A stretch of 48,167 nt of DNA from NCBI GenBank assembly GCA_028820795.1, contig JAPPHK010000240.1, positions 1 through 48,167 on the forward strand, written 5' to 3'. How positions within the stretch are numbered: position 1 is the first letter of the stretch; each line of letters starts with the position of its first letter. The stretch comes from Nitrospinota bacterium. GTDB taxonomy: Bacteria; UBA8248. This document shows, piece by piece, positions 22,800 to 48,167 of this stretch. Both the position numbers and the translations under genes were made by a program. The notes below the pieces were generated by a model that did no database searches, was not told where the DNA came from, and saw only the letters and a list, made by a program, of their open reading frames with translations.

Positions 22800-24176
22800 T
22801 CAATATCCTGCTTCTGCATGTGAGCCTATTCCTCTTCGTCTGCTCCAAACCAAAAACCAAACCAGGAGGCATATACCACCCGTAAAATGACTTATCGTCA
22901 TCGCGCCCCATACACCCGAGGCTTCGAATCCCAAAGGCAACGCGGCAAAATACGCGAGAGGAATCTGAAAACCCCACCGGACGAAAGCTTCCACAACCAT
23001 CGGCGGTTTCGTGTTCGCTGCTCCTTGAAAAGCACCCGCCAGCATTCGCCGGACAGCTTCAAACAAAGTGCCGATGGAGAGTATGCGGACACAAGCGACG
23101 CCAACGTCGACTCCCTCGCCCTTCATTCCGAAAATCAAGACAATTTCCCTTGCGAAAAAATACAAAAGAAATGTCACGCCACACATCATGACGAACAAGC
23201 CGGCCATAGCGAAATAGACGCTTTTTAGCGCCCTATCGGGACGATTGGCGCCTACGTTTTGTCCCACCATCGTCCGTACGGCAGATTGAATTCCAAAACC
23301 GGGCAATCGCGAAAACGTCCCGAGCCGATTCCCAATCGACCATGCGGCTAATACCACTGGCCCAAACAACGCCAAAATCTTGAGCAAGATGAGAAGGGCG
23401 CCGCGCTCCAGTAAATTTTGCGCCGCCGCGGGCCAGCCCAACAAAATAATACGGCGCATGCTTTTCAAATCGGGTTTGAGATGAACTAACCTGATACGGA
23501 GACGAGAACGCCCCGATGTCAAAAACCACAGGACGACAAGAACTCCTATGATGCGACCAATTCCAATACCAATAGCGGAACCTGGGAGTCCGAATCCCGC
23601 GAACGGCCCAATACCAAAAACAAGGAGGGGAATGAACGTAATGGATAAAAGCGTCGAAATTCCAAGGCCAATCAAGGATTTTCCAGGTTCACCGGAAGAT
23701 TTCAACATATGCGAAACGGTGAAAATACCATCCACGAACGCGATGGTTAGAAAAGATGCCTGCAAATACCCAACGCCAACTCGAATTACATTCGTATCAG
23801 AAGTCAAAAGACCGAGCAAATACGATGACAACACATAACCAAGAATGCTGATTGAAACGTAATAGACACCCGCCAGCAAAATCGCCTGTGCCGCCGCATG
23901 GCTTGCGTGTTCAGGTTCTTTCGCTCCGATTCTCTGGGCCACCAAAGCGCTGCCCGCGATTCTGATGCCGAAGCCGACTGCACGAAAAAAGAAGATGATC
24001 ATAAAACTCAAAGAAACTGCAGCCAGATATTCGGGCCCCAAACGTCCTACCCAAAAGATTTCGACCAGTATGTCGGCGTTCCAGGCTATCGGTTCCAGAC
24101 ATGACGGAACAGCCAGGCGAAACAGCCCAAAGCCGATTGAACCTTTTGTGTAGTCATAACGCTTAATGGATTTCAT
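22800..24176 (-). CDS. MATE family efflux transporter (copy 2)
   Basis: This is a polytopic protein starting MKSIKRYDYTKGSIGFGLFRLAVP, parallel to the upstream paralog's RRYDYTKGPIGRSLVVLSLP. Its ATG overlaps the upstream stop (ATGA at 24173-24176). The ORF-track start at 24320 is rejected. Confidence 0.8.
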   Translation of the reverse strand: MKSIKRYDYTKGSIGFGLFRLAVPSCLEPIAWNADILVEIFWVGRLGPEYLAAVSLSFMIIFFFRAVGFGIRIAGSALVAQRIGAKEPEHASHAAAQAILLAGVYYVSISILGYVLSSYLLGLLTSDTNVIRVGVGYLQASFLTIAFVDGIFTVSHMLKSSGEPGKSLIGLGISTLLSITFIPLLVFGIGPFAGFGLPGSAIGIGIGRIIGVLVVLWFLTSGRSRLRIRLVHLKPDLKSMRRIILLGWPAAAQNLLERGALLILLKILALFGPVVLAAWSIGNRLGTFSRLPGFGIQSAVRTMVGQNVGANRPDRALKSVYFAMAGLFVMMCGVTFLLYFFAREIVLIFGMKGEGVDVGVACVRILSIGTLFEAVRRMLAGAFQGAANTKPPMVVEAFVRWGFQIPLAYFAALPLGFEASGVWGAMTISHFTGGICLLVWFLVWSRRRGIGSHAEAGY

Positions 24177-25576
24177 GAAGAATGTGATTCGCCCTTTGGC
24201 ACCATACTTTCTAACTTTCTCCGCCAACCAATCGCAAACCACACGAATAACGCCAATCCACCGATGAGTTGACTCGCCGCTACCGCCCACCAAATACCCA
24301 ATTCCCGAAATCCCATCCAAACCGCCAGCATATATGCGCCCGGCAACTGCACGATCCAGCGAACGATTGCTTCAACGATCATGGGAGGCCTGGTGGATGA
24401 CGCCCCTTCAAATATTCCCGCCACGACACGCCTGGTAGCTTCAAATCCAAGGCCTACACACAAAATTTGCAGGCAAATCACCGCGTGGGGCAATGCGGCG
24501 CCTTTTATCCCGAAAAAAGTAACGACTTCTTTGCTCCAGACAACGAAGCCTGTGATGACGACAACCATGATGGAAACAACAGTCCCTACCGTCACCCAAG
24601 CGCTGCGGATGGCCCGCTCAGGCTTTCTCGCGCCGATATTTTGACCCACCATCGTCCGCACAGCCCCCTGGAGGGAAAACCCGGGCATTCTTCCCATATT
24701 GTTGACACGACTGCCCAGGCCCCATGCCGCAAGAGCAAGCGCGCCAAACGGAGCAAGCATCCACACCAATACCAAGTTGGCGCCTCTCTCAAAAAACATT
24801 TGCCCCCAAGCGGGCCAACCCAGCCCAAGTATGCGCTTCATCTCAGTGGGACGCGGGCTCAGATGGTGCCATTTCAGGTGTATTCTGGCATACCCCCTGA
24901 ATAGAATGAGTAACATCACGAGGCAACCCGCCAGCCTTCCCGCGCCTAAACCGAAATAAGCGCCAGCCAGATGAAACGGAGGGATCAATCCGAATCCAAA
25001 GATAAAAGCGGGCATGGCGATGAATGTAACGCCTGAATTGATAATCATGCCGAAAAGCGAATATTTCGGTTCACCAGCGCCTCGGAATAAATTTGCAAGG
25101 GTGAATATTCCGTCGACGAACAAAAGCACGAGGAACCCGGCTCGCAGATAAATCGTCGATAAATACAAAAGTTTCGGATCAGACGTCATCCACCCCATAA
25201 AGTAAGGTGAGAAGATGTATCCTGCGCCGCAAAAGGGAATGAAGAAGAACGTTTGAAGCAAAATACATTGACCTGCAATAAGAGCAGCACCTTCCTCATC
25301 ATTCGCGCCAACTCTTTGCGCAACCAGCGCTTGGCCCGCTACACGAATACCCATGCCCATTGCTCTCACCATCATGGGAATCATGTAGCCCAATGACATC
25401 GCTCCGAGTGCGTCCGAGCCCAACCGGCCCACCCAGTAAATTTCAACGATCGTATCGATGTTCCAAGAAATCAGTTCAGCGAAAATCGGCAGGGACAGAA
25501 CTACTAAGCTTCGCCCGATGGGGCCTTTGGTATAATCATATCTTCTTGTTTTCGACCGCAATTGAGCCATGCGCAC
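24173..25576 (-). CDS. MATE family efflux transporter (copy 1)
   Basis: The 467-aa protein has about 12 TM helices and is clearly paralogous to the downstream gene along its whole length. Confidence 0.8.
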   Translation of the reverse strand: MRMAQLRSKTRRYDYTKGPIGRSLVVLSLPIFAELISWNIDTIVEIYWVGRLGSDALGAMSLGYMIPMMVRAMGMGIRVAGQALVAQRVGANDEEGAALIAGQCILLQTFFFIPFCGAGYIFSPYFMGWMTSDPKLLYLSTIYLRAGFLVLLFVDGIFTLANLFRGAGEPKYSLFGMIINSGVTFIAMPAFIFGFGLIPPFHLAGAYFGLGAGRLAGCLVMLLILFRGYARIHLKWHHLSPRPTEMKRILGLGWPAWGQMFFERGANLVLVWMLAPFGALALAAWGLGSRVNNMGRMPGFSLQGAVRTMVGQNIGARKPERAIRSAWVTVGTVVSIMVVVITGFVVWSKEVVTFFGIKGAALPHAVICLQILCVGLGFEATRRVVAGIFEGASSTRPPMIVEAIVRWIVQLPGAYMLAVWMGFRELGIWWAVAASQLIGGLALFVWFAIGWRRKLESMVPKGESHSS

Positions 25577-33722: not shown

Positions 33723-34274
33723 CTAATTTTTGTGTTTCATTTCATGGAGCAAGAGCGCTATCTTCAGTGATACGCTACTGGCGAATCCGCCGAGCTCGCC
33801 CGAGCCCGCGATGACTCTATGTCATGGTATTATAAGTGGAACGGGATTTCTATGAAGCGCCTGGCCGACGGCGCGCGAAGCTTTCGGGTTTCCAATCTGA
33901 TTCGCCACCCAGCCGTAGGAGCGTGTCTCGCCATACGGAATTTTTTCCGTCTGCCTCAGCACCTTCCTCATAAAAGGCGTGAGAGGGGATAGGTCCGTCT
34001 TCAACTCAAAACTTTTTCGAGTGCCCTCTAGATACTCTTCAATCTCAATTGAAACTCGAAGACTCAATGACGTTGATTGTTCACTTGCATGATCAGCCAC
34101 GAGAGGTTTTTCCACCCCAGACAACATTCTGATTTCCGCTATACCCTCATCCGATACAAACACGGAGAATTCCGTACGCACCTTCTGGAGCCACTTGGCA
34201 ACATGATTTTCCAACGATTCCCCGTCTTTCTGGAACAACTCCCCCTGACGCCATTTATCCACCCGGCGCGCCAT
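33723..34274 (-). CDS. ogt: Methylated-DNA--protein-cysteine methyltransferase (Ogt/MGMT family) with in-frame TGA at the catalytic Cys codon; candidate selenoprotein, alternatively a fresh pseudogene
   Basis: The ORF-track product ends ...YGWVANQIGNPKASRAVGQALHRNPVPLIIP, then TGA (33822-33824). The same frame continues HRVIAGSGELGGFASSVSLKIALLLHEMKHKN to TAG (33723-33725). The family signature is (I/V)PCHRV. AAGGAG lies 8 nt upstream of ATG 34274. Confidence 0.6.
33787..33811 (-). promoter_or_regulatory. Candidate bacterial SECIS-like hairpin downstream of the ogt TGA
   Basis: On the coding strand there is a 7-bp stem (one G-U pair that exists only on this strand) with loop GGGC, spanning +14 to +31 after the TGA. 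It is extendable past a bulged G. I did not fold it computationally. Confidence 0.4.
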
Positions 34275-35567: not shown

Positions 35568-35951
35568 TCATGACGAACAAGACAATGCGCGATTAGCCGC
35601 ATCCATCTCCATGACGCCAGACGGCCTCTCAACGCCTTCGACGAAGGCAGCATCCGCACCGGCCATCTCAAGCTGAAAAACAACCTCGTTCAAGTCCGCG
35701 TTCGGAGATAGCAATATCCCTCGCCTCGCGGGCATACCCGTTTGAGCCACCTCGCCTACTTTCTGAAAAACTTCGGGAACACGAACAAACGCATCAAGGT
35801 CTTGTTTGTTTACGACGCCAATCAAACGCTTATTATCAAAAACCGCCGCCCAGGGCGCGTTTATCCTGTTCATGGCCGCCCAGGTTTCTCTAGCGTCTTC
35901 TTCCACTCCAACAATCGCTACCGCTTGCAAAAAACACTCCCTGACTTTCAT
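35568..35951 (-). CDS. CBS-pair domain protein
   Basis: The 127-aa protein has two CBS-like repeats (...AAVFDNKRLIGVVNKQDL... and ...AAFVEGVERPSGVMEMD...). Its start overlaps the upstream stop by 4 nt. Confidence 0.6.
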   Translation of the reverse strand: MKVRECFLQAVAIVGVEEDARETWAAMNRINAPWAAVFDNKRLIGVVNKQDLDAFVRVPEVFQKVGEVAQTGMPARRGILLSPNADLNEVVFQLEMAGADAAFVEGVERPSGVMEMDAANRALSCSS

Positions 35952-36662: not shown

Positions 36663-36694
36663 GAACAAAAAGCCTGTCCCCTGAGGGACAGGCT
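36663..36694 (-). terminator. Strong hairpin plus T-tract between the two crotonase genes
   Basis: On the minus strand this reads AGCCTGTCCC-TCAG-GGGACAGGCT followed by TTTTGTTC: a perfect 10-bp stem. Confidence 0.65.
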
Positions 36695-36721
36695 TGATGT
36701 TCTATAAAATTGGCAACTTCT

Positions 36722-37504
36722 TTATTCTCCGGTAAAAACAGGCTTCCTCTTCTCTTTGAACGCCGCCAGCGCCTCGGCGAAATCCTTGGTGTGATTCAAC
36801 GGCAACCTGAGGGCATTGGAAAACTCGATGGCCTGGCTGAGCGGCATATCGAGAGTTTGATCGATCGCTTTTTTCGCGCTCCGTACTCCCAAAGGGCCGT
36901 TGTCTCTAATCCTCTCCGCCATAGTAGTGGCTTCATCCATCAGTACATCCAGCGGATGCGCTCTGTTCACCAAACCGATGCGCTCCGCTTCTTTTCCATC
37001 GATTCTCTTGCTCGTGAAAACCAACTCTTTCGCCTGGCCGGCCGGCATGATTCTTTGAAGCCAGACTACGCCGCCTGCCCCGGGGAAGATGCCCAGGCTG
37101 CATTCCGGAAAACAAATAGTGGCTTCTTCAGCAGCCAGCCTGATATCGCATACCAAGGTAATTTCAACGCCCCAGCCGAATGTGTGGCCATTGATGGCGG
37201 CGATGGTGGGCATGGGCAAGCGTTCCCATAACGACGTTGCCGACATCACATAGCGCTGGTATTGATCGGCCATCTCCTTCGTATGCGTTGCGCTTTCTTT
37301 CAGGTCGCGGCCGGTGCTGAAACCACGTCCCTCTCCAGTGAGAATAACCACCCGCACATTTTGCGCGTCGGCCAAAGTTCGCGCCAATTCCACGAATTCT
37401 TCCGCCATCTTGAAACTGATTGCGTTCAGACTATCCGGACGGTCGAACTTCACTACCGCCAATCCATCTTTTTCCGTATAGGTTAACGTTTCAAATTCGC
37501 GCAC
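36722..37504 (-). CDS. Enoyl-CoA hydratase/isomerase (crotonase) family protein, copy 1
   Basis: Motifs VKFDRPDSLNA, LTGEGRGFSTGRDLKE and AAINGHTFGWGVEITLVCDIRLA are present. The GTG start has AGGAGAGGG upstream. Confidence 0.8.
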   Translation of the reverse strand: MREFETLTYTEKDGLAVVKFDRPDSLNAISFKMAEEFVELARTLADAQNVRVVILTGEGRGFSTGRDLKESATHTKEMADQYQRYVMSATSLWERLPMPTIAAINGHTFGWGVEITLVCDIRLAAEEATICFPECSLGIFPGAGGVVWLQRIMPAGQAKELVFTSKRIDGKEAERIGLVNRAHPLDVLMDEATTMAERIRDNGPLGVRSAKKAIDQTLDMPLSQAIEFSNALRLPLNHTKDFAEALAAFKEKRKPVFTGE

Positions 37505-37545: not shown

Positions 37546-38088
37546 TCAGCTTTTCAGGTGGCTGGCTACTTCTTCGACAAACTTCAGCGTCGTGTCTCTC
37601 ATTTCATCAGCCTGCAAATTACTGACCGGGTGAGGCAACTGAATATAGGGATGCCCTTCCATGCCCTTGCCACGGAACTGAAAGTCCGCCGCGTTCTTGA
37701 ACGCCTCGGTGATGATGGTCGTTGAAGGGACGCCCCGTTTTTCAAATTCAACCGTGTCGTGCACACTGCACAACGTGCAGGAGCCTCAGCCTCCCAAAGC
37801 GGCTATCGCCACATCCACCTCCTGGGCCATTTCTTCGATCATTTCATCAGTGGCCGGCTTCGAGTAATGCTCTTTGCGCCTCGATACGACTCTGGCCACG
37901 TCGTATTGCTCGCGTAGGGCATTCCCCAGGGTTTCCAAAATGATATCCGCTTGCTCCTTGGTGTTATCGAGGAGTCCCACCACCTTTCCCGAAAGATCGC
38001 CGGGCCGTTGCGCAAGCTCGATTCGTGCGGCCGACCCTCCCGCTGTCGGATCGATGAATCCCATTCCGTTCGCCATGGTTTTCTCCAT
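37546..38088 (-). CDS. UGSC-motif selenoprotein candidate (U-x-x-C), split into two ORFs by TGA in the ORF track
   Basis: ORFs 37786-38088 and 37546-37773 are in the same frame. Read through the TGA (37786-37788), the junction is ...VAIAALGG-U-GSCTLCSVHDTVEFEKRG.... The M of the second ORF is an internal TTG Leu codon. ATG 38076 (GGAG upstream) is an alternative start. Confidence 0.7.
37756..37774 (-). promoter_or_regulatory. Candidate bacterial SECIS-like hairpin downstream of the UGSC TGA
   Basis: On the coding strand there is an 8-bp stem (one strand-specific G-U pair) with apical GUG, spanning +12 to +30 after the TGA. An alternative 6-bp hairpin spans +6 to +20. Confidence 0.4.
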
Positions 38089-38270
38089 ATAATATGTGAA
38101 TTCAACCGGACTTAAATCATATCCCGCAATTCATTCCTTGTCTACGATATCAGCCTATTCGTTATTTCCATGAATATGCGAATGTTGGTTTATCCGCTTC
38201 TCAGATTCGCCAAATTTTGGCAAAATCAAGTCTAATTTACGGAAAACCTCTTACCTTAAGGAGCAGACAA

Positions 38271-40532
38271 ATGGCCGATTACGATATCATCGGCAAGTCG
38301 AATGTTCGATACGACGCGATTCCAAAAGCTGATGGCTCCATGCCTTATGGAGAAGACGCGATACCCGCTGGCGCCCTGCTGTGCGGCGTACTGTTTACGC
38401 CCATCCCCGTAGGCCGCTTGAAAAAACTCGACACCTCAAAAGCCGAAAAAATCCCAGGCGTAGCCGCCATTCTGACTGCAAAGGATATTCCGGGCACAAA
38501 CGCGCGATTCAGCTCCGGCACGCCGGGCCTGCCCCATCAGCCAGTGCTGGTGGAAGACAAGATTGAATTCACCGGAGATGCCCTCGCTATCGTTGGCGCC
38601 GAAAACAGAGAAGCGCTTGATGCCGCAATATCGGCAATCGAAGTGGAAATCGAGTCGGAAGAGGGCGTGTGGACAACGCGTCACGATGAAACAAGCGCCG
38701 AAAAACGACAAGCGTGTGACTTTGAAGCTACCCGCGGAGACGTAAAGAGAGCGTTTGACGAAGCCGATGTGGTGATTGAGAAAACATACACTACGCAACT
38801 CGCTGAACACGCCTTCCTGGAACCCGCTTCCGGTACTTCCTGGATGGAGGAAGACGGCGTCATCACCATCCGCGTCGGAACCCAACTCATTGAATACTAT
38901 CGCGCCATTGCGGCGATTTTAGGAATCTCGCATAGCCGCGTCCGCCACCTCGGCACTTATGTCGGCGGCGGATTCGGCGCCAAGGGCATGTTGACTGTAG
39001 AGCCTTACCTGGCGCTGCTCACCTGGCATACGCAAAGGCCCGCCGTCATGGTGCTGGGTCGCGAGCACGGCATCAGAAATACCTCGAAAAAACATCCTTT
39101 CTATATGAGATACAAAACAGGAGCGACCAAGGACGGGAAAATCCTTGCCGTAGAAGCGGATATCGTGGGCGATGCAGGCGCCTATCCGTACAAATCCAAT
39201 CTATTCCTCTTGGGCGCGATGTGCATCGCCGCAGGCCCTTACGATGTCCCCAACGCAAAAATTCGCGCCCACGGCTATCTCACCAACAATCCCATCACGA
39301 ACGCGATGCGCGGTGTAGGGTCGAACCAGGTTTGCTTCGCATATGAGACTCAAATGGACCTGGTGGCGGACGCCATCGGGATGGATAAATACGAATTCCG
39401 GCGGAAAAATTTCATCCAGAAGGGCCAGGAACTGCCGACCGGGCAGAAAATTCCTTATGAACCGAACCTGGAAGGATGTCTCGACAGTGCGCTTCAGGCC
39501 TTGGGTGATCCCGCAGAACCAGGCCCGGGAAAACGCATTGGCAGGGCGGCGGCAGCGAACATCACTGGTTACGGAAGACCGCATGACGATGCGAATGCGG
39601 CGGTTCACCTCGAGCCGGATGGCAGCGCCGTTGTTCGCGTGAGCGCGCCGGACATAGGCGCCGGCCAGGGCGCTACGCTTCAAAGCATCACGGCTGAAAC
39701 CCTCGGGCTCAGGCTCGACCAGGTATCCACCCGCCTGTCAGATTCCGCCACAACACCACTCTCGGGAATCACGGCAGGTTCCCGCCAAACACTCATGGCG
39801 GGGCACGCTGTTCGACTTGCCGCAGACGAGGTACGGAAAGCCGTGACCAAAGGCGCAGCTGCGTTACTTGAAGCTGCAGAGGAGGACATTCGCCTTGGAG
39901 GTGGTGAGGCTTGGGTGGCGTCCGCTCCCGAGAGAAGACTCGGCATCGGTGCAGCTGCTGGCGAAGCGAAAAAAATGGGTGAAGCGCTACATTGCACCCA
40001 TGGCTACAACATGCCGGGACATGAGTACGAGAATCCGGAGCGATACATGAACGGCATGGGCGGATGGTCGGACTACACCTTTGGTGTTCATGCAAGTGAA
40101 GTGGAAGTCGACATCGAGACCGGCGAAGTGAATCTCTTGAAGCACGTCGCTTCCCACGATGTCGGACGAGCGCTGAATCCTCAAAGTGTTGAGGGGCAAT
40201 TCGAAGGCGGCGCGGTGATGGGGATTGGTTATGCGCTGCATGAGGAAATCACCATGGTGGAAGGTGACTGTCGATCACAAAGCTTCCACGAGTACCTGAT
40301 CCCTACTTCATCGGATATCGGCGAGTTTGAGTGTGTTGTTCTTGAATGTGGGGAGGGCGCAGGCCCATATGGTGCACGAGGCGTCGGAGAGCCTCCTTGC
40401 AATAATGCGCCGGCCGCCGTTGCTCTTGCCATCAATGATGCGATAGGCACGGAAGTCTACGATTTACCCATCACGCCCGAACGTGTTTGCTGGGCAGTCA
40501 CGAAGAAAAACGGTAAAAGCAACGGCCATTAA
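38271..40532 (+). CDS. Xanthine dehydrogenase / aldehyde oxidase family molybdopterin-binding subunit
   Basis: An N-terminal a/b-hammerhead-like segment (...LLCGVLFTPIPVGRLKKLDTSKAEKIPGVAAILTAKDIPG) and a C-terminal GARGVGEPP active-site context are present. AAGGAG lies upstream of ATG 38271; the ORF-track start is 38217. Confidence 0.85.
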   Translation: MADYDIIGKSNVRYDAIPKADGSMPYGEDAIPAGALLCGVLFTPIPVGRLKKLDTSKAEKIPGVAAILTAKDIPGTNARFSSGTPGLPHQPVLVEDKIEFTGDALAIVGAENREALDAAISAIEVEIESEEGVWTTRHDETSAEKRQACDFEATRGDVKRAFDEADVVIEKTYTTQLAEHAFLEPASGTSWMEEDGVITIRVGTQLIEYYRAIAAILGISHSRVRHLGTYVGGGFGAKGMLTVEPYLALLTWHTQRPAVMVLGREHGIRNTSKKHPFYMRYKTGATKDGKILAVEADIVGDAGAYPYKSNLFLLGAMCIAAGPYDVPNAKIRAHGYLTNNPITNAMRGVGSNQVCFAYETQMDLVADAIGMDKYEFRRKNFIQKGQELPTGQKIPYEPNLEGCLDSALQALGDPAEPGPGKRIGRAAAANITGYGRPHDDANAAVHLEPDGSAVVRVSAPDIGAGQGATLQSITAETLGLRLDQVSTRLSDSATTPLSGITAGSRQTLMAGHAVRLAADEVRKAVTKGAAALLEAAEEDIRLGGGEAWVASAPERRLGIGAAAGEAKKMGEALHCTHGYNMPGHEYENPERYMNGMGGWSDYTFGVHASEVEVDIETGEVNLLKHVASHDVGRALNPQSVEGQFEGGAVMGIGYALHEEITMVEGDCRSQSFHEYLIPTSSDIGEFECVVLECGEGAGPYGARGVGEPPCNNAPAAVALAINDAIGTEVYDLPITPERVCWAVTKKNGKSNGH

Positions 40533-40709: not shown

Positions 40710-41729
40710 TTACACATCAAATTTTTTTGTAACCGCTCGACACGCCACGGTAATTCCGTGCATGACCATACTCGAAGGCGAACCCATGCTTCCAGCAACC
40801 AATAAATGAAGATCGTCAGGATCTCCAACCACAGGCACAAAAAAACTGTCATCATTTACATTCACGGGAAACGGCCAGCGATCCGCGCCTTTCTCGCCTC
40901 TCCAGATGCCGCCGCGCTTTATATTCCCTATAGTGCGCCCACCCATTTCTAATAATTGTTGATGAACATCACTGCGAGTCAGCCCGGCGTCGGCGCACAG
41001 GTGCGCATGTTGCGCGCCCAGAACAACCGCCATATCTGCTTGCCGATACATATTTGGCCCACCCAATGCGGACATCATATCGGCAACCGTTGTAAGAAGA
41101 CGGTCAGGAGTCAGGCTCGCATCGTCCCATACCTGCACCGGTCCTTCGAGAGGAATCATGGTCACCACGTTATCGCTCTCCGAAAACCCTTTCGATTCCG
41201 CATACGACTCCCAAGGCGATTCCTCCTCGTTCTCCCGGATGCAAAAAGTGTTTCGCCAAGGGCCGCCAAAACCGCCGAGACAGGTAATTCCGGGAATACC
41301 ACCTCCCACATTCATCATGATGAGCCTCACGGCACGGCCGATAGTCAGGTTTGCGCGAAATCCGGGGCCCATGCAGCCCACGCCGCCATGCATCCCGATT
41401 TCTCTGGCGTAGGGGCCATTGACCAACAGAAAAGGCGCGCCCGCGCTCGTCGTTGCCTGAATCAGGTTTACGTTAAAACGCTCATCAAGAAGCGCTTCCA
41501 GTCCCGCTATCAACACCGGCATGTATTCAGGCTTGCAGCCCGCCATCACGGCATGGGCCGCCACGCCTTGGATGCTGAGTTCCCCACCCGCCGGTGCGAC
41601 ATGACCGAGTACTTCGCTCGGCTCCCTTGTCGTTCCCGAGAGCATCAAAGCGATTCTCTCATCCGTGGGCGTCACGACAGGCAGGCCGTCCGACCATTCC
41701 TTGTCAAAGAAAAACTCGAATTCATCCAT
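40710..41729 (-). CDS. Uncharacterised conserved protein, tandem paralog 1 of 4
   Basis: The 339-aa protein starts MDEFEFFFDKEWSDGLPVVTPTDERI. It shares HAVMAGCKPEYMPV and NGPYAREIGMHGGVGCMGPGFRANLTIGRAVRL blocks with the next three genes. GAGGAAG lies upstream. Confidence 0.75.
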   Translation of the reverse strand: MDEFEFFFDKEWSDGLPVVTPTDERIALMLSGTTREPSEVLGHVAPAGGELSIQGVAAHAVMAGCKPEYMPVLIAGLEALLDERFNVNLIQATTSAGAPFLLVNGPYAREIGMHGGVGCMGPGFRANLTIGRAVRLIMMNVGGGIPGITCLGGFGGPWRNTFCIRENEEESPWESYAESKGFSESDNVVTMIPLEGPVQVWDDASLTPDRLLTTVADMMSALGGPNMYRQADMAVVLGAQHAHLCADAGLTRSDVHQQLLEMGGRTIGNIKRGGIWRGEKGADRWPFPVNVNDDSFFVPVVGDPDDLHLLVAGSMGSPSSMVMHGITVACRAVTKKFDV

Positions 41730-41764: not shown

Positions 41765-42781
41765 TTATGGTTGATAGCCAGACGATATCGCCTCACTGCC
41801 ATCCACCCAACCAGGCATAACGGCCGTCACCGGCCCGGGCGTACCCCCTGCGACGAGAAGTATCAGATCATCTTCATCCTTAACCGCCGGAACCAGAAAC
41901 GAATCATCTTGCAGATCCGCGTCAATTGGCCACTTGGCTATCATCTCCTCACGCCAATAGCCCGACTTTTTCAGCTCTCCCAAAGGTCGGCGCGCAAGTT
42001 CCATAATTCGGCGATGGACATCTTTTTTCCCCAATCCAGCATCCGAACACATACGCGCATGATCCGGCCCCAAAGCAACTACAACTTGGGTTTTCAGCCA
42101 GATGTTCAACGAACCTAAAGTGGATATTTTATCCGCTAATCCTACGAAAAAAGATTCCGGCTCCTTGGAATAATCATCGATATATCCTTGAGGCGCCTCC
42201 GTCATCACGGCGGTTACGACATCGTCATCCTGTTGGAACCCTCTCGTGACGGACAACGGCTCCCAGGGACTTTCCGCTTCATTCTCGGCGATACAAAAAG
42301 TATACCTGGCGGGTGAGCCGAACGTACTCATCGAGGCAAAAACCGGCACACCGCCGCCCAGGTTCATGAGAATCAGCCGGATGGCGCGACCAATCGTCGC
42401 ATTCGCCCGAAAACCCGGGCCAAAGCATCCCGTGCCTCCATGCAGGCCGATTTTTTGCGCATAAGGGCCATTCACGATAATTAGAGGTGCTGCGCTATGC
42501 ATGGTGCCTTGTACGCCGTTCAGGTTGAGTTTCGGCGCAAGAAGCGCTTTAAGACCAGCAATAACGACGGGCAAAAACGAAGGCTCACACCCCGCCATCA
42601 CGGCGTGCGCGGCTATCGCTTCGACGCTGGCTTCCCCCATGAGGGGCGGAACCAAGCCAAGGACTTCCGAAGCCCCGTGTCTTGTGCCCGAGAGCATGTT
42701 CGTAATTCGTTCTTGGGTCGGGGGAACAATCGGCAAACCGTCCGACCAGGATTTTTGAAAGAAAAACTCGAATTCATCCAT
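41765..42781 (-). CDS. Uncharacterised conserved protein, tandem paralog 2 of 4
   Basis: The 338-aa protein starts MDEFEFFFQKSWSDGLPIVPPTQERI and carries the same conserved blocks. Confidence 0.75.
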   Translation of the reverse strand: MDEFEFFFQKSWSDGLPIVPPTQERITNMLSGTRHGASEVLGLVPPLMGEASVEAIAAHAVMAGCEPSFLPVVIAGLKALLAPKLNLNGVQGTMHSAAPLIIVNGPYAQKIGLHGGTGCFGPGFRANATIGRAIRLILMNLGGGVPVFASMSTFGSPARYTFCIAENEAESPWEPLSVTRGFQQDDDVVTAVMTEAPQGYIDDYSKEPESFFVGLADKISTLGSLNIWLKTQVVVALGPDHARMCSDAGLGKKDVHRRIMELARRPLGELKKSGYWREEMIAKWPIDADLQDDSFLVPAVKDEDDLILLVAGGTPGPVTAVMPGWVDGSEAISSGYQP

Positions 42782-42822: not shown

Positions 42823-43857
42823 CTAGACCTCATAGGCGCCATGAACGGCCCGGCTGCCACCGCTCCAACCATGGCAGACAGCGCTGCCCGATCCCCAGCC
42901 GCCTGCAACGATCAAGTGCAGATCACGTGAGTCCTTGATGACGGGAACGAAAAATTCGTCGTCATCGGGGTCCACATGAATATACATATCCAGGGCGCGC
43001 TCTCGCCGCCAGTTACCGCCTCTTTTCAACTCCTTCACTTTGTGACCGGCCAACTCGCATAGACGCCGATGCACGTCTGCGCGCGCGAGGCCTCCCTCGG
43101 AACAAATTTTCGCATGCTGGGGATTCATGGCGACAACCATATCGGTCCTGGGCGCGTGCATGTTCCAGGAACCCAAACCCGTCATCGCATCGGCGATTCC
43201 TCTTAGCAGCCTCTCGGGCTCCTCGCTGACGTCATCGAAGGTCAGGCGTGGGCTTTCCACCATGGCCATGGTGATTACATTCTCGTCCGTCCCGTATCCT
43301 CTCGATTCAGCGAGCGTCTCCCAGGGGTGAAACTGGAGGTTCTCGGTGACGCACGCGGTATAACGCAACGGCGTGCCGAAAATCGTCATGGAAGAAACGC
43401 CCGGGATGCCCCCGCCTAAGTTCATTAAAATCAGGCGGATCGCGCGGCCAACGCTAGCGTTGGCCCTGAAACCGGGACCAAAACAGCCATTGCCCCCGTG
43501 AATACCGATTTCCTGCGAATAAGGGCCGTTCACGATCATCAACGGCGCTACGCCGTGCATCGTACCCTGCACGCCGTTCATGTTGAATTCATCGAGAAGC
43601 ATAAGCGAAGTGGCACCGAGTACGACCGGCAGATATTCCGGCTTACAGCCGGCCATCACCGCATGGACCGCCACGCTATGGACCGTAGCCTCCCCCATGG
43701 CGGGAGGAACTTGGCCTATCAGTTCGGCCGGATTTCTCTTCGTGCCCGAGAGCATGCGCTCGATGCGCTCTTCCGTAGGAGTGACGACGGGCAAGCCGTC
43801 CGACCAGGGTTTTTCCAGAAAAAACTCGAATTCATCCTGAGGATCGCTCAAAACCAT
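42823..43857 (-). CDS. Uncharacterised conserved protein, tandem paralog 3 of 4
   Basis: The 344-aa protein starts MVLSDPQDEFEFFLEKPWSDGLPVVTPTEERI and carries the same conserved blocks. Confidence 0.75.
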   Translation of the reverse strand: MVLSDPQDEFEFFLEKPWSDGLPVVTPTEERIERMLSGTKRNPAELIGQVPPAMGEATVHSVAVHAVMAGCKPEYLPVVLGATSLMLLDEFNMNGVQGTMHGVAPLMIVNGPYSQEIGIHGGNGCFGPGFRANASVGRAIRLILMNLGGGIPGVSSMTIFGTPLRYTACVTENLQFHPWETLAESRGYGTDENVITMAMVESPRLTFDDVSEEPERLLRGIADAMTGLGSWNMHAPRTDMVVAMNPQHAKICSEGGLARADVHRRLCELAGHKVKELKRGGNWRRERALDMYIHVDPDDDEFFVPVIKDSRDLHLIVAGGWGSGSAVCHGWSGGSRAVHGAYEV

Positions 43858-43884: not shown

Positions 43885-44916
43885 TCATGATTCATATGCG
43901 CGGGAAACCGAACGGCTGCTCCCGTTCCAGCCGTGCATCACAGCGGTTATCGGCCCCGGAACGCCGCCCGCCACGATCAAGATCAGCCTTTGGGCCTCTT
44001 TTATCGTCGGAACGAACGCTTCGTCATCTTCCAGATCGACGGGCATCGGGAAGTCTCTGATGCGATTTTCCCGGAAATGTCCCCCCGTTTTCAGTTCGCC
44101 CACCGTGCGGCCGGCGATTTCGCAAAGCTTTCCGTGGACATCCGACTTTGAATACCCCTTCTTTGCGCAAATCGAAGCCTGTTGCGGGCTCATCGCCACC
44201 ACCAAATCCGTGTTGGCCCAACAATTCCACGAACCCAGATGCGACATGGTGTCCGCAATAGAGGGCAACATGCGCTCGGGATCGTCGCTCACGTCATCCC
44301 AGGACATGACGGGACCTTCCACGTGCACGGCGGTGACGACGTTCTCCTCTGCGCCAAAACCCATCGACTGCGCAAGTGACCCCCAGGGGCTTTCCGATTC
44401 ATTCTCGGCGATGCAGTACGTGAACCTCCCCGGTTGTGAGAACGTGCTCATCGAGGTGATGCCCGGTATTCCGCCGCCGATGTTGAGGAGCAAAAGCCTG
44501 ATGGCGCGGCCGATCGTCGCGTTGGCTCTGTTTCCGGGGCCGAAACAGCCGAGACCGCCGTGCAGGCCGATTTCCCTGGCGTAAGGGCCGTTCACGATCA
44601 AAAGGGGCGCCGCGCAGGACAGCGTCGCCTGCACGCCGCCCACGTTGAATTTTTCTTCCAGCATGGCCTCCACGGCTCCGAGGAGAACGGGCATGTACTC
44701 CGGCTTGCATCCGGCCATGACGGCATGAACGGCGATGGTCCGAACGTCCGCCGGCGCCAGAAGCGGCGGTACGTCGCCGATGACTTCGTCCGGGTCGCGG
44801 CTCACCGCCGCCAGCATGAGGCCCAGACGTTCTTCCGTCGGGGGGATGACCGGCAGGCCGTCCGACCAGGGTTTATCGAAGAAATACTCGAACTCGTCCA
44901 CGGGAGGAACGCTCAC
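43885..44916 (-). CDS. Uncharacterised conserved protein, tandem paralog 4 of 4
   Basis: GTG 44916 (GGAGG 6 nt upstream) gives VSVPPVDEFEYFFDKPWSDGLPVIPPTEERL. The ORF-track start at 44979 adds 21 non-homologous residues. This copy is visibly more GC-rich than paralogs 1-3. Confidence 0.7.
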   Translation of the reverse strand: MSVPPVDEFEYFFDKPWSDGLPVIPPTEERLGLMLAAVSRDPDEVIGDVPPLLAPADVRTIAVHAVMAGCKPEYMPVLLGAVEAMLEEKFNVGGVQATLSCAAPLLIVNGPYAREIGLHGGLGCFGPGNRANATIGRAIRLLLLNIGGGIPGITSMSTFSQPGRFTYCIAENESESPWGSLAQSMGFGAEENVVTAVHVEGPVMSWDDVSDDPERMLPSIADTMSHLGSWNCWANTDLVVAMSPQQASICAKKGYSKSDVHGKLCEIAGRTVGELKTGGHFRENRIRDFPMPVDLEDDEAFVPTIKEAQRLILIVAGGVPGPITAVMHGWNGSSRSVSRAYES

Positions 44917-45067
44917 GAAATGCCTCCGGTCAATTATCCGAGGAAAGGGATACGCCTGTTTCGCCGCACAAATATACATGGGCGCTGGACAGATTGCGAG
45001 TCCGTGTCGTTAGAATACGCCCGAGATGCTATCCTCCGTAAACACCTCATTTACAGGAGCTTATACC

Positions 45068-45454
45068 ATGCCGATCTACAGAAATCTCGCCGGCCGTAAC
45101 CAGGGAAAGGCGGCCGACTACGTGACCGCCGACGCCGCGTGGGTCGATGGCGTTCACACCACCATCGGTTACTTCCGCATGGCGGCGCACGGCCATTCCA
45201 ACCCCCACTATCACCACGACGAGCAGTTCCTCTATCTCCTGAAGGGCGGGCTGCGGATCGCCGTGGAAGGAGAGATACTGGAAGCAGCGCCCGGAGATCT
45301 CGTGCAGTTCCGCCCGGGCGAGGTGCACGAGATCATGGCGCTCGACGAACCCGTGGAGCTTCTTCTCACGAGGTCTCCGGCGCGGCCGGGTCTCGAGGTG
45401 CTCGCCGTGACGCCCGAGGGAGCGCGCGCCAGGAGCCTCCTGCGCCCCGAATAG
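45068..45454 (+). CDS. Cupin domain protein
   Basis: The pattern HSNPHYHHDEQFLYLLKGGL ... PGEVHE fits the cupin motifs. AGGAG lies 8 nt upstream of ATG 45068; the ORF-track start is 45026. Confidence 0.65.
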   Translation: MPIYRNLAGRNQGKAADYVTADAAWVDGVHTTIGYFRMAAHGHSNPHYHHDEQFLYLLKGGLRIAVEGEILEAAPGDLVQFRPGEVHEIMALDEPVELLLTRSPARPGLEVLAVTPEGARARSLLRPE

Positions 45455-45645
45455 CCTCATCGGCGCAACGCCAATGTTATCAGCTTGTTTCACGGCATCA
45501 CCATGCGCGGTGCGGCCCGCGGACGGCCCCGTTTCGCCCTCCGCGCGTGAGCCGCTCTCGCCGGAATCCTCCCTGCAGCGTCTCGCCGCCCAGGCGAGTG
45601 CCCGGGATTTCATGCCCGCGAATCCGCGCATCAGCGCGCGAATCA

Positions 45646-45810
45646 CACCCCCGCAACTCCCCGCATCTGCCGTTACCGCAGGCGGGGCGGGCCGTGGCAG
45701 AATTCTCCTGCGCCGCCGGAGCTGCGCCCATTTCCGAGCAAAAAAATCTCCATTTATTTATCGAAATACCCCGTGAATTTATCGAATTTTATCGAAATTT
45801 TTGGAAATTC
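45646..45810. repeat. Right (inverted) copy of the long-range repeat seen at 1-165
   Basis: See feature 1-165. It has the same iteron triplet (atttatcgaaa / tttatcgaat / ttatcgaaat) and the same acggcagatgcgggNagttgcggggg core, in opposite orientation. Confidence 0.8.
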
Positions 45811-45811
45811 A

Positions 45812-45924
45812 TTTTTTCCGGACGCGCCCGGCCGCTTCACCATCCTACGCGAGTTTTCCTCGAGGCCCACGACGGCAATTGCGGGGAATTGCGACCGAGA
45901 AGAGTCAAACCCGATCGGGGAGGG
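45812..45924. repeat. Direct repeat unit A1 (~112 bp)
   Basis: It matches 46022-46135 with 7 substitutions and 1 indel by my count. Confidence 0.85.
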
Positions 45925-45989
45925 AGGTCGATTCCGACCGAGGAGGGAGGTCGATTCCGACCGAATAGGGAGGAATCGAACCCGGCCGG
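45921..45989. repeat. Three tandem 23-bp units, each with a GGTCG-N4-CGACC mini-hairpin (third unit degenerate)
   Basis: The sequence agggaggtcgattccgaccgagg / agggaggtcgattccgaccgaat / agggaggaatcgaacccggccgg is read directly. Confidence 0.8.
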
Positions 45990-46021
45990 GGAACGGGCGT
46001 TAGCCGGGTGAGGAGAGGTCC

Positions 46022-46135
46022 GTTTTTCCCGGACGCGCCAGGGCGCTTCACCATCCTACGCGAATTTTCCTCGAGGCTCATGACGGCAACTGCGGGGAAT
46101 TGCGACCGAGAAGAGTCAAACCCGACCGGGGAGGG
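46022..46135. repeat. Direct repeat unit A2 (~112 bp)
   Basis: This is the partner of A1. It is followed by GGTCG-CTCT-CGACC: the same stem with a different loop from the hairpins after A1. Confidence 0.85.
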
Positions 46136-46433
46136 TCGCTCTCGACCGATCAGGGAGAGAGCGGGATCATCCACCGGCGCGGCCGGCGCGTGCGGCGGAC
46201 CGGGCGAGCGGGATGAATTCCGCGCGGTCCGGTTTTATCCAGAGCGGGGAGGGAGGGATCAACCGCAAGGTGGGATGAGTGGATCGGAGGGAATCATGCT
46301 TCACTCGCCCTTTCTCGGCTTGAAAACCAACCCCCCCTTAACGGGACCGTTGAAATAGTCCTTACGGGGGGATGATGCCCCACAAAGAGCACCGTCCAAT
46401 GCGGGAGGGTGGTTTTGCTCTTCGCTTTTGATC

Positions 46434-46573
46434 GTCATTCCGGCGAAAGCCGGAATCCAGAGCGGACGGGAGTCGATGAAAGCGCGGGATAGACAATCCG
46501 GTGGAAGTGGCGGTGTTTCTTCGACTCCGGGTTTTCCCATCGGTACTGGATTCCGGCGCAAGGCCGGAATGAC
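46434..46573. mobile_element. MITE-like 140-bp element with 27-28-bp hairpin-forming terminal inverted repeats
   Basis: gtcattccggcGAAAgccggaatccag (46434-46460) pairs with the reverse complement of ctggattccggcGCAAGGccggaatgac (46546-73). A nested inverted repeat is present: cgggagtcga (46467-76) with tcgactccgg (46521-30). There is no coding capacity. Confidence 0.55.
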
Positions 46574-46626
46574 GCCCAAAAACAAGGGGCGCGTTCGCGA
46601 CCCGAGGTTCGACCACCAAATGCAAA

Positions 46627-46697
46627 GGGACGCATATATGCGTCCCCTGCGGCGATATTGCGGGAATTCGCAGGGGCGGTTCGCGAACCGCCCCTGC
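46627..46697. repeat. Two perfect palindromes (20 nt and 28 nt)
   Basis: gggacgcatatatgcgtccc (46627-46646) and gcaggggcggttcgcgaaccgcccctgc (46670-46697) are read directly. Confidence 0.85.
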
Positions 46698-46803
46698 TTT
46701 CTCAACAACCCCGCCTTGGTCGGGTTTGACCCTCAAGAGGGAGTGGTCTCCCTCTTCCGCAGGGACAGGCCACGGCCCGTCCCTGAAAAATCCGTCTTTC
46801 CGC

Positions 46804-48167
46804 CTACCAGCGCCTGGAGCCCCGCAGCAGCACGCCGCTCTCGGGCGCCGCGCCGTCCGCGGGTTCGGTGAGCGAAGCCTCCAGCTCCAGGTCGAGGGCC
46901 GGCCCCAGGCTCCAGCGCGCGCCCGCGCGCCAGGTCTCGCCGCCCTCCGAGTGCGAAAGGCCCGCATACGGCGTCAACAGCCCCCGGTAGGCGGCGAGGC
47001 CGTAGCCCACCTCCGCTTCGAGCCGCGCCCCGGGGTCGAAGTTTCTCGCGGAGACGCCCTGCGCCTGCGACCACAGCCGCTCCGCGCCGCCCGAGTCCGC
47101 CCCCCAGGCGGAGGCCAGGCTCATCGACAGCCCGCGTCCGCCCGAAGCCGGGGCGTAGCGCATCGATCCGCTCACCCCCCATTCCTCATAATCGCTCTCC
47201 TCGTGCTTCACCAGGGCGCGCGCGCCCACCTCGAGCGTGAGGCGCTTCGCCGCGAAGCGCAGGCTTCCGCCGACTTCGAGGCCGCTGCCGGTCTCCGCGT
47301 CGCCCCGCTCGTGGCGGTAGCCCACCTCCACCGAGGGCGTCAGCACGCCGGCCGCCCCCAGCCGGAACGAGCGCGAGCCCTCGAGCAGCAGGCGGAGGCG
47401 CATCGTGTCCGCCTCGACTTCGGGCAGGCCCGCCGCCGCGTCCGAACGCGACGCGCTCAGCAGGAAGTCCCCGCGCAGCGCGAGTTCGAACCCGCCGGCC
47501 ATGCGCGCCGGGAGCAGGATTCCGCGCCCCCCCGCCGCCGTCATGCCCGACTCGATGTCCGTCTCGACCGGCGCCGCGCCGCGCCGGGTCTGTATCGTCA
47601 TGTCGCCCCGGCCCATGCCCAGCGCCCCCCACAGGGAGAGCCGCTCGCTCAACTGATAGCGCAGGTAGGGGTAGACGCCCGTGAGCGCGCTCTCCACCTC
47701 GCAGGCGCTCCGGCACGACCCGCCCGCGCGGTAGCTCCCCTCGCCCCTGCTCAGCGCGAGCGCCACGCCGACGAGCGCGGCGCCCGATTCGAAGTCCAGG
47801 CCCAGCGTCGCCGTCGTCACCTCGCCCTCGAGCGCCAGGCCGTCCGCCGCGCCCTCGAAGTTCGAGCGCGCCCCCCGGCCCCACGCCGACCAGCGCGCGC
47901 CCGCCTCCATGCTCTCCGCGGAGGCCAGGTGGAAGGAGCTCGCGAGGAGCACCTCGCTCATCCTGAGCTCGCGCCAGACCGCGTCCACGTCCTCGCCCGT
48001 CCGCTCGTTCAGGGCGCGTCCGGTGAGGGGGCGGTCCGCCCCCGGGAGCAGCGCGTCCGCGTGCGCGCCCATGTTCTGGCCGCCGATCGTCACGCCGCCC
48101 GCCTGCCCGCGCAGGCGCGCCTCGATGGCGCCGGCCACGTGGTCCGACGCCGCGCGCGAGAAGCGCG
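46804..48167 (-). CDS. Autotransporter outer-membrane beta-barrel domain protein, 5' end outside the window
   Basis: There are alternating beta-strand patterns with Gly/Ala/Ser/Arg-rich turns, and the C-terminus ends ...VLLRGSRRW (terminal aromatic). The frame stays open upstream of the GTG at 48138 to the window edge. The gene is very GC-rich. Confidence 0.6.
   Translation of the reverse strand, partial: RFSRAASDHVAGAIEARLRGQAGGVTIGGQNMGAHADALLPGADRPLTGRALNERTGEDVDAVWRELRMSEVLLASSFHLASAESMEAGARWSAWGRGARSNFEGAADGLALEGEVTTATLGLDFESGAALVGVALALSRGEGSYRAGGSCRSACEVESALTGVYPYLRYQLSERLSLWGALGMGRGDMTIQTRRGAAPVETDIESGMTAAGGRGILLPARMAGGFELALRGDFLLSASRSDAAAGLPEVEADTMRLRLLLEGSRSFRLGAAGVLTPSVEVGYRHERGDAETGSGLEVGGSLRFAAKRLTLEVGARALVKHEESDYEEWGVSGSMRYAPASGGRGLSMSLASAWGADSGGAERLWSQAQGVSARNFDPGARLEAEVGYGLAAYRGLLTPYAGLSHSEGGETWRAGARWSLGPALDLELEASLTEPADGAAPESGVLLRGSRRW

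Follow-up and report, generated by a model that had tools for sequence, protein, structure and literature searches.

In a 48,167-nucleotide contig of a Nitrospinota bacterium (JAPPHK010000240.1, assembly GCA_028820795.1; the whole stretch is called the window below), a gene interrupted by an in-frame TGA codon at 37786-37788 on the minus strand appears to encode a selenoprotein of the known UGSC family, a reading to which we give a probability of roughly 0.92. The two open reading frames (ORFs) called at this locus, 37786..38088 (100 amino acids (aa), starting with ATG) and 37546..37773 (75 aa, starting with TTG), lie in one shared frame, with the TGA and 12 nucleotides (nt) between them, and comparison with homologs identifies them as a single gene. 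Read-through of the TGA gives a product of 180 codons with the junction ...EVDVAIAALGG-U-GSC-TLCSVHDTVEFEKRGVPSTTIITEAF..., followed by a TGA stop at 37546-37548; written with shorter flanks, the junction is ...AIAALGG-U-GSC-TLCSVHDTVEFEK... and the peptide across it ...AALGG-U-GSCTLCSVHDTVEFEK. An initial annotation, made from the letters of the window, had proposed this joining, and both its coordinates and its translation were correct; no outcome that it listed as refuting was encountered.

Family identity and distribution

Hidden Markov model (HMM) searches were carried out with the joined protein after replacement of U by C. The protein scored 149 bits against NCBIfam NF041046, "UGSC family (seleno)protein" (an equivalog model with a curated cutoff of 125), and 176.1 bits against Pfam PF24696, "UGSC family" (cutoff 25), and all 63 aligned relatives matched the same two models. 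The family name given in the initial annotation is a real one, and the HMM search that it recommended (149 and 176 bits) came out in favour of the joined protein. Besides scoring above the cutoffs, the protein carries U/C-G-S-C at the conserved column, has the ~175-aa length of the family and combines UGA with a candidate selenocysteine insertion sequence (SECIS) element, as expected for a form containing selenocysteine (Sec). Among 5.8 billion proteins, 119 relatives were found, nearly all of which are ~100-aa fragments that correspond to ~55% of the query and end in ...GG. These fragments are the product of gene callers at the conserved UGA, and the mis-annotation foreseen in the initial annotation thus extends to more than 100 database homologs. 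The N-terminal half is 98% identical to publicly available sequences (P0001). A few full-length relatives, and many more recovered by profile search, contain G-[H/D]-C-G-S-C-T at the junction. These cysteine (Cys) homologs do not end at the TGA column; their alignment crosses the junction and runs on over the C-terminal half as far as a conserved LPHP motif. An exhaustive HMM search yielded 4,665 cluster representatives at E <= 1e-3.

The Sec form is carried by metagenome-assembled genomes (MAGs) with the label Nitrospinota/Nitrospinaceae, which share 94-99% identity with the window; further carriers are Burkholderiales, additional Betaproteobacteria, Chloroflexota/SAR202 and Tectomicrobia, among others. 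A cultured carrier, Hyphomonas neptunium, is named in PMC1976440. Cys-form homologs were common in archaea (loci L103-L157), including many Methanobacteriaceae and several haloarchaea, some of them on plasmids. These archaeal forms make the family much broader than the aquatic bacterial Sec forms of the literature.

The family has been catalogued since 2007-2008 as the 'UGSC-containing protein' of Zhang and Gladyshev, and the gene as such is of low novelty. In the Global Ocean Sampling data, UGSC ranked among the most abundant selenoprotein families, with 255 Sec against 21 Cys forms (PMC2398784); the same 2008 paper assigned it a 'likely Trx-like fold' (thioredoxin-like) and noted a fusion to a domain termed Unknown_1 (PMC2398784). 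Mentions in the papers searched are catalogue entries that give its function as unknown, and reviews of 2022 and 2026 still list it as uncharacterised. Three by-products of the present analysis may be new and provide testable handles on function: a predicted flavodoxin/Rossmann-like, non-thioredoxin fold, remote homology of the Sec half to GrdB/GrdF/GrdH, and a near-obligatory ~340-aa partner family, linked or fused to UGSC and without an existing model. For annotation, the case illustrates that standard gene callers split or truncate UGSC genes, leaving more than 100 database relatives as 100-aa stubs, and the same window holds a second mis-called selenoprotein gene.

The TGA codon occupies a selenocysteine/cysteine column

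Eighty loci were taken from species-representative genomes, 77 of them with a readable junction. At the UGSC column, TGA was present in 77 of these 77 loci, which represent several phyla, and the frame behind it remained open and encoded a near-invariant GSCTLCSVHDT[VI]EFEK. The same column held TGC (43) or TGT (29) in 72 Cys-form loci, which is the alternation between Cys and Sec that the initial annotation had suggested looking for. One full-length relative, P0308, contains Trp at this column (GH-W-GSCTS), and a single mutation separates TGG from TGA; the protein could be genuine, as an inactive or variant form, or could be an artefact of assembly or calling.

Sec decoding of the UGA is well supported by these comparisons, with the Sec machinery of the organism presumed. 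It is backed indirectly by a second recoded gene that has a covarying hairpin, by the selenoprotein richness of the lineage and by the local character of the recoding. The second gene, located 3.5 kb downstream of UGSC, encodes a homolog of O6-methylguanine-DNA methyltransferase (Sec-MGMT), in which the TGA falls on the catalytic Cys (...PLIIP-U-HRVIAGSGELGGF...). This TGA was kept in 19 related loci and replaced by TGC in one relative (L049), and it is followed by a hairpin, GAGCUC-GGGC-GAGCUC (~33788..33810), that shows compensatory changes. Sec-MGMT is a listed selenoprotein family, and here it was cut at 150 aa by the ORF callers. In BSepDB, 'Nitrospinota' MAGs of the GTDB phylum UBA8248 count among the ten bacteria richest in selenoprotein genes (48-54), and one of these MAGs, FO_M_Nitrospinota_01, is the source of one of the loci compared here (L013). 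Normal stops in the 27 Pfam-supported genes of the window were 12 TGA, 9 TAA and 6 TAG. Since UGA is thus the commonest normal stop and also ends the UGSC gene itself, the recoding must be local, and a global reassignment of UGA is ruled out.

A read-through of the UGA without Sec, by near-cognate insertion of Trp or Cys or by reassignment throughout the lineage, is improbable. The Sec machinery was not observed directly and Trp does occur at the column in P0308, but the stop-codon usage speaks against reassignment, the recoded UGAs fall exactly on catalytic Cys positions in two unrelated families, the hairpin described below is specific to the UGA forms and lies at the canonical 11-nt spacing, and relatives in the lineage are reported to have about 50 selenoproteins.

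A conserved hairpin follows the TGA

The hairpin GUUGUGCA-GUG-UGCACGAC, with 8 base pairs (bp), spans +12 to +30 past the UGA and leaves 11 nt between the UGA and the stem. Its position (37774..37756) agrees with that given in the initial annotation, and the comparative data show it to be more than a chance structure; on this basis it is a probable bacterial SECIS. The hairpin was present in the minimum free energy fold, and RNAalifold recovered the same helix. Codons +4 to +10 (ACG TTG TGC AGT GTG CAC GAC) had synonymous entropies of 0, 0.24, 0, 0, 0, 0.35 and 0.10 bits over 76 distinct sequences, as compared with 1.3-1.9 bits for equally invariant flanking residues (Gly -2, -1 and +1; Ser +2; Thr +11; Gly +18; Pro +20). 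This frozen synonymous block coincides exactly with the hairpin. Standard pairs were found in 568 of 568 pair cells from 71 distinct sequences, and the seven substitutions observed in the helix, four from G-C to G-U and three double changes from G-C to A-U, all keep the pairing. An invariant U-G pair, together with the G-U variants, makes the structure specific to the coding strand, as had been claimed. All Sec forms (70/70) retained 8/8 pairs; in the 67 distinct Cys-form genes, of similar GC content, a mean of 4.3 of the 8 pairs could form in the same register and none (0/67) had 8/8. The SECIS check proposed in the initial annotation gave no Rfam match, yet the frozen synonymous sites, the covariation and the absence from Cys-form genes back the hairpin. 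An alternative 10-bp register, chosen by RNAfold in some homologs, was rejected: it was 86% paired, which is no better than shuffles, and the compensatory changes did not fit it.

Slightly less probable than a decoding without Sec is that the 19 nt of the hairpin are conserved for a reason other than a SECIS, for example as a regulatory RNA, as a DNA-level site or through a codon bias for the TLCSVHD peptide. Rfam has no matching family, the bulged U of the Escherichia coli fdhF element is missing, and the near-invariant sequence leaves limited covariation. Against such roles, the frozen codons include the four- or sixfold degenerate ACG, TTG, AGT and GTG across phyla of differing GC while adjacent invariant residues vary, 7 of 7 substitutions preserve the pairing, the U-G and G-U pairs tie the structure to the coding strand, the element is missing from every Cys-form gene, and both its position and its G-containing loop fit the rules for bacterial SECIS elements (fdhF, bSECISearch criteria).

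The least probable reading takes the TGA as a genuine stop, in a pseudogene, through a sequencing error or between separate 100-aa and 75-aa genes: ORF calling with translation table 11 does yield two ORFs, most database entries are 100-aa proteins and a GAGG lies 10 nt ahead of the TTG, but the TGA is shared by 77/77 loci of several phyla with an intact frame and a near-invariant protein after it, full-length Cys homologs span the two halves as a single domain, the conserved hairpin includes the TTG, and the G-S-C-T codons between TGA and TTG are the most conserved part of the family.

Returning to the single selenoprotein gene, the TTG of the 75-aa ORF is internal, as the initial annotation had it, and sits within the 5' arm of the hairpin. 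The accompanying statement that no Shine-Dalgarno sequence precedes it was nearly right; the GAGG found 10 nt upstream is made from the UGA and an invariant Gly codon. The joined length of 180 codons holds when counted from the first ATG (38088). The start is most likely ATG 38076, with a product of 176 aa rather than 180, because this second ATG (38076-38074) is preceded at 6 nt by GGAG and is shared by all lineages, and the first is TTG in the closest relatives. In most loci, (A/G)GGAG is kept at the same spacing before the second ATG.

Predicted fold and remote homology to GrdB

The fold was modelled with AlphaFold2 on P0096, the closest full-length Cys homolog (40% identity), using a 64-sequence alignment. 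The model reached a predicted local distance difference test score (pLDDT) of 93 and a predicted template modelling score (pTM) of 0.88, and consisted of five parallel beta-alpha units with the UGSC motif placed where strand 3 gives way to the next helix, at the helix start. Its structural matches in the PDB were flavodoxin/Rossmann-like, with template modelling (TM) scores of 0.4-0.55, and included lumazine synthase, CheY-like proteins, the N-terminal domain of Fe-dependent alcohol dehydrogenase (Fe-ADH) and PurE-type proteins; a thioredoxin fold was absent from the top 50. UGSC is thus predicted to adopt a flavodoxin/Rossmann-like rather than a thioredoxin-like fold, and the Trx-like fold suggested in 2008 was not supported by this model. 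Sequence searches of the PDB, with UGSC as well as with the partner family introduced below, gave only chance matches.

The window protein and 12 of the 63 relatives matched the GrdB model TIGR01917 below its threshold (best E = 1.5e-4). Other UGSC members matched the sibling GrdF, GrdH and PB-family models, and no unrelated family recurred as much. No match to the Pfam GRDB model was found among the 63 members at E <= 0.01. A UGSC profile was then compared by hhalign with real grdF, grdH and grdB-like genes from megaplasmids. The comparison with GrdB/F/H gave a probability of 89.5% and E = 2e-6 over 86 columns, with UGSC 90-180 aligned onto GrdF 340-428 and Sec placed on Sec350. Reversed or shuffled decoys gave E = 0.03-0.9, masking of the motif E = 3e-4, and the post-motif region alone E = 5.5e-5. 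By these profile comparisons, the Sec half of UGSC is remotely homologous to GrdB/GrdF/GrdH, and UGSC is not a member of the GrdB family.

A partner family linked to UGSC

Upstream of UGSC, the window contains four tandem paralogs of a ~340-aa family that are ~50% identical to one another. The family also retains ~50% identity across phyla, with the invariant motifs WSDGLPV..PT, HAVMAGC, GxGCxGPGxRAN and VAGG; invariant Cys residues stand in HAVMAGC and in an R-x-T-x-C-x-x-EN motif. It had no Pfam or NCBIfam match, and its homologs, at least 5,905 in number, are all annotated as 'hypothetical'. Adjacency to UGSC was measured by tblastn. In 47 of the 77 loci a partner gene lay on the UGSC strand within 300 nt, and a further 18 had one on that strand within 5.5 kb, which amounts to linkage in 65 of the 68 informative loci; flanks were truncated in 9 of the 77, and 3 loci with adequate flanks lacked a partner. 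Cys-form UGSC genes of Sphingobium baderi and of a metagenome overlap the partner by 4 nt, and two natural single-chain fusions of UGSC and partner were identified (P0435 and P0374, hhalign 100%), which probably correspond to the 'UGSC/Unknown_1' fusion reported in 2008. A fold search with the partner gave no significant PDB match; the best, class I Fe-S fumarate hydratase alpha (E = 4.9e-3, TM 0.30), is too weak. The idea of a three-Cys Fe-S site in the partner is weakened by the sequence of a distant partner, in which one of the Cys residues is Ala.

Proposed mechanism and points against it

Translation would begin at ATG 38076 and proceed to the UGA at 37786-37788, where the ribosome would insert Sec in place of termination. 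The 8-bp mRNA hairpin with its invariant GUG loop, 11 nt downstream, would act as the SECIS bound by SelB-GTP-Sec-tRNA(Sec), and 79 further codons would then be translated up to an ordinary UGA stop, which has no such hairpin. The 176-aa product is predicted to form a five-stranded flavodoxin/Rossmann-like alpha/beta domain, in which strand 3 leads into a helix that begins with U-G-S-C. Sec may pair with the Cys located three positions later as a selenol/thiol redox couple, in the manner of the C-terminal Sec domain of GrdB/GrdF/GrdH, which is homologous. The selenolate could attack a substrate or a partner-bound intermediate, whereupon the neighbouring Cys would resolve the adduct to an Se-S bond that is subsequently re-reduced. 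UGSC would then supply the redox subunit to a two-component enzyme formed together with the ~340-aa partner, conceivably one of organic-acid or acyl-CoA catabolism. More broadly, and only tentatively, UGSC and its partner could represent a widespread, sometimes fused, two-component Sec/Cys-dependent enzyme of aerobic and marine bacteria and some archaea, whose redox subunit is a minimal relative of the Sec domain of glycine/sarcosine/betaine reductase protein B and which performs a reductive step in organic-acid or acyl-CoA catabolism. If so, the four partner paralogs of the window could lend one selenoprotein subunit several substrate specificities.

A number of observations weigh against this picture. 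The window contains no tRNA gene and no selA, selB, selC or selD, and SelA, SelB and SelD domains were absent among the 35 ORFs scanned. In single-sequence folding the hairpin alone is no more stable than shuffled sequence (z = -0.49), a measure that is uninformative alone, so that the comparative data carry the case for the hairpin. The sequence of the hairpin varies little, with double changes in 1 of 8 pairs and in 3 related loci, and strict covariation is therefore thin; because of this, the case for a SECIS rests mainly on the freeze at synonymous sites and on the contrast between Sec and Cys forms. At gathering thresholds, Rfam detected neither a SECIS nor another RNA family in the whole window, and a local scan at E <= 10 gave only chance-level matches; since the Rfam models span few lineages, a missing match does not count against SECIS function. 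The fold model is that of the 40%-identical Cys homolog P0096, not of the window protein. The window protein scores far below the family cutoffs of TIGR01917 (18.4 vs 602 bits), TIGR01918 (12.9 vs 65 bits) and PrdB (11.2 vs 300 bits). The partner was rejected as a pyruvoyl subunit of the GrdE/GrdG/PrdA kind (hhalign probability of 0.07% against GrdG), and the partner genes of this window do not lie next to UGSC.

Features and neighbourhood in the window

The features of the locus and its surroundings are collected in Table 1. The enoyl-CoA hydratase gene that follows UGSC is probably co-transcribed with it. The sigma-70-like promoter is tentative, as the count of such sites in the sequence is not above shuffle expectation. 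The molybdenum (Mo) hydroxylase gene that separates UGSC from the partner genes was found in the same place in loci L001-L010, L013 and L050; no genes for a small (2Fe-2S) or medium (FAD) subunit were seen beside it.

Table 1 Coordinates of UGSC and surrounding features in the window
Feature	Position	Strand	Remarks
UGSC-family selenoprotein coding sequence	37546..38076	minus	176 aa, Sec at residue 97; from translation, HMM matches, start conservation and Cys homologs across the junction
Longest ORF variant of the UGSC gene	start ATG 38088	minus	180 aa, Sec at residue 101
In-frame TGA read as selenocysteine (well supported)	37786..37788	minus	TGA in 77/77 loci; Cys codon in 72 Cys-form loci
U-G-S-C redox motif codons (TGA GGC TCC TGC)	37777..37788	minus	invariant in both family alignments
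Probable bacterial SECIS hairpin	37756..37774	minus	5' arm GUUGUGCA 37774-37767, loop GUG 37766-37764, 3' arm UGCACGAC 37763-37756
Shine-Dalgarno sequence GGAG	38083..38086	minus	6 nt ahead of ATG 38076
Sigma-70-like promoter match TAGACA-17-TATGAT (tentative)	38116..38144	minus	10/12 matches in a consensus scan; divergent intergenic region upstream of UGSC
Enoyl-CoA hydratase	36722..37504	minus	41 nt downstream of UGSC; PF00378, 4.9e-61
Strong terminator-like hairpin	36670-36695		after the enoyl-CoA hydratase gene; 11-bp stem and T tract
Sec-MGMT, O6-methylguanine-DNA methyltransferase homolog (PF01035)	33723..34274	minus	TGA 33822-33824 at the catalytic Cys of P-C-HRV
Xanthine dehydrogenase/aldehyde oxidase family, Mo-cofactor-binding subunit	38217..40532	plus	divergent from UGSC, between UGSC and the partner genes
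Four tandem partner paralogs (~340-aa family)	40710-41729, 41765-42781, 42823-43857, 43885-44979	minus	upstream of UGSC

The neighbours of UGSC are enoyl-CoA hydratases and an acyl-CoA dehydrogenase in this window, TctC/Bug receptors, PanE-like reductases and MmgE/PrpD in Burkholderiales, and a thiolase, acyl-CoA dehydrogenases and an acyl-CoA synthetase in Sphingobium. In S. baderi LL03, the overlapping UGSC and partner genes also have a LysR regulator beside them. These neighbours are a loose pointer to organic-acid or acyl-CoA catabolism. A 127-aa ORF (35568..35951, minus strand), which separates the second enoyl-CoA hydratase of the window from the acyl-CoA dehydrogenase, is conserved in 13 related loci and has no Pfam match.

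Elsewhere in the window, two tandem ORFs for MatE-family transporters (22800..24320 and 24173..25576, minus strand) overlap by 148 nt in their longest-ORF coordinates, and the downstream gene probably starts later than its longest ORF implies. The GC content climbs from ~0.51 over most of the window to 0.62 at 44-46 kb and 0.70 at 46-48 kb. The ORFs in ~44000..48167 had no or weak Pfam matches, including a sub-threshold outer membrane protein (OMP) beta-barrel match at 46804-48138, and this high-GC end could have a foreign origin or reflect a join in the assembly.

Comparison with known systems

With the thioredoxin-fold selenoproteins of the UxxC/CxxU type (Trx-like, Prx-like and SelW-like), UGSC shares a U-x-x-C motif at the N-terminus of a helix. 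The architectures differ: the thioredoxin fold has the order beta-alpha-beta-alpha-beta-beta-alpha and a mixed sheet, whereas the UGSC model has five parallel beta-alpha units.

The SECIS of E. coli fdhF has an 11-nt spacer, a G/U-containing apical loop and a bulged U. As in this element, the UGSC hairpin lies inside the coding sequence, has its base 11 nt past the UGA and carries G/U in the apical loop. In contrast, it is shorter (8 bp with a 3-nt loop), has no bulged U and has no Rfam match.

UGSC aligns with GrdB/GrdF/GrdH and PrdB over U-G-[ST]-C-T-x-C and the ~90 following residues, including a terminal (I/L)PHP(L/V) strand, and probably shares with them the role of a Sec/Cys redox centre within a multi-subunit enzyme. 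However, with 176 aa against ~436 aa (~240 aa for PrdB), UGSC is devoid of the N-terminal two-thirds of the GrdB family. Most of its carriers are aerobic or marine Proteobacteria, Chloroflexota and 'Nitrospinota' rather than anaerobes that ferment amino acids, and its partner is unrelated to the pyruvoyl-forming GrdE/GrdG/PrdA.

The closest counterpart is the catalogued UGSC family itself. The window protein passes both of its models, agrees with it in length (~175 aa) and carries U-G-S-C at the column typical of it; in this family, Sec forms outnumber Cys forms. There is essentially no difference between the two, apart from the displacement, in this lineage, of the usually adjacent partner gene by an inserted Mo-hydroxylase gene.

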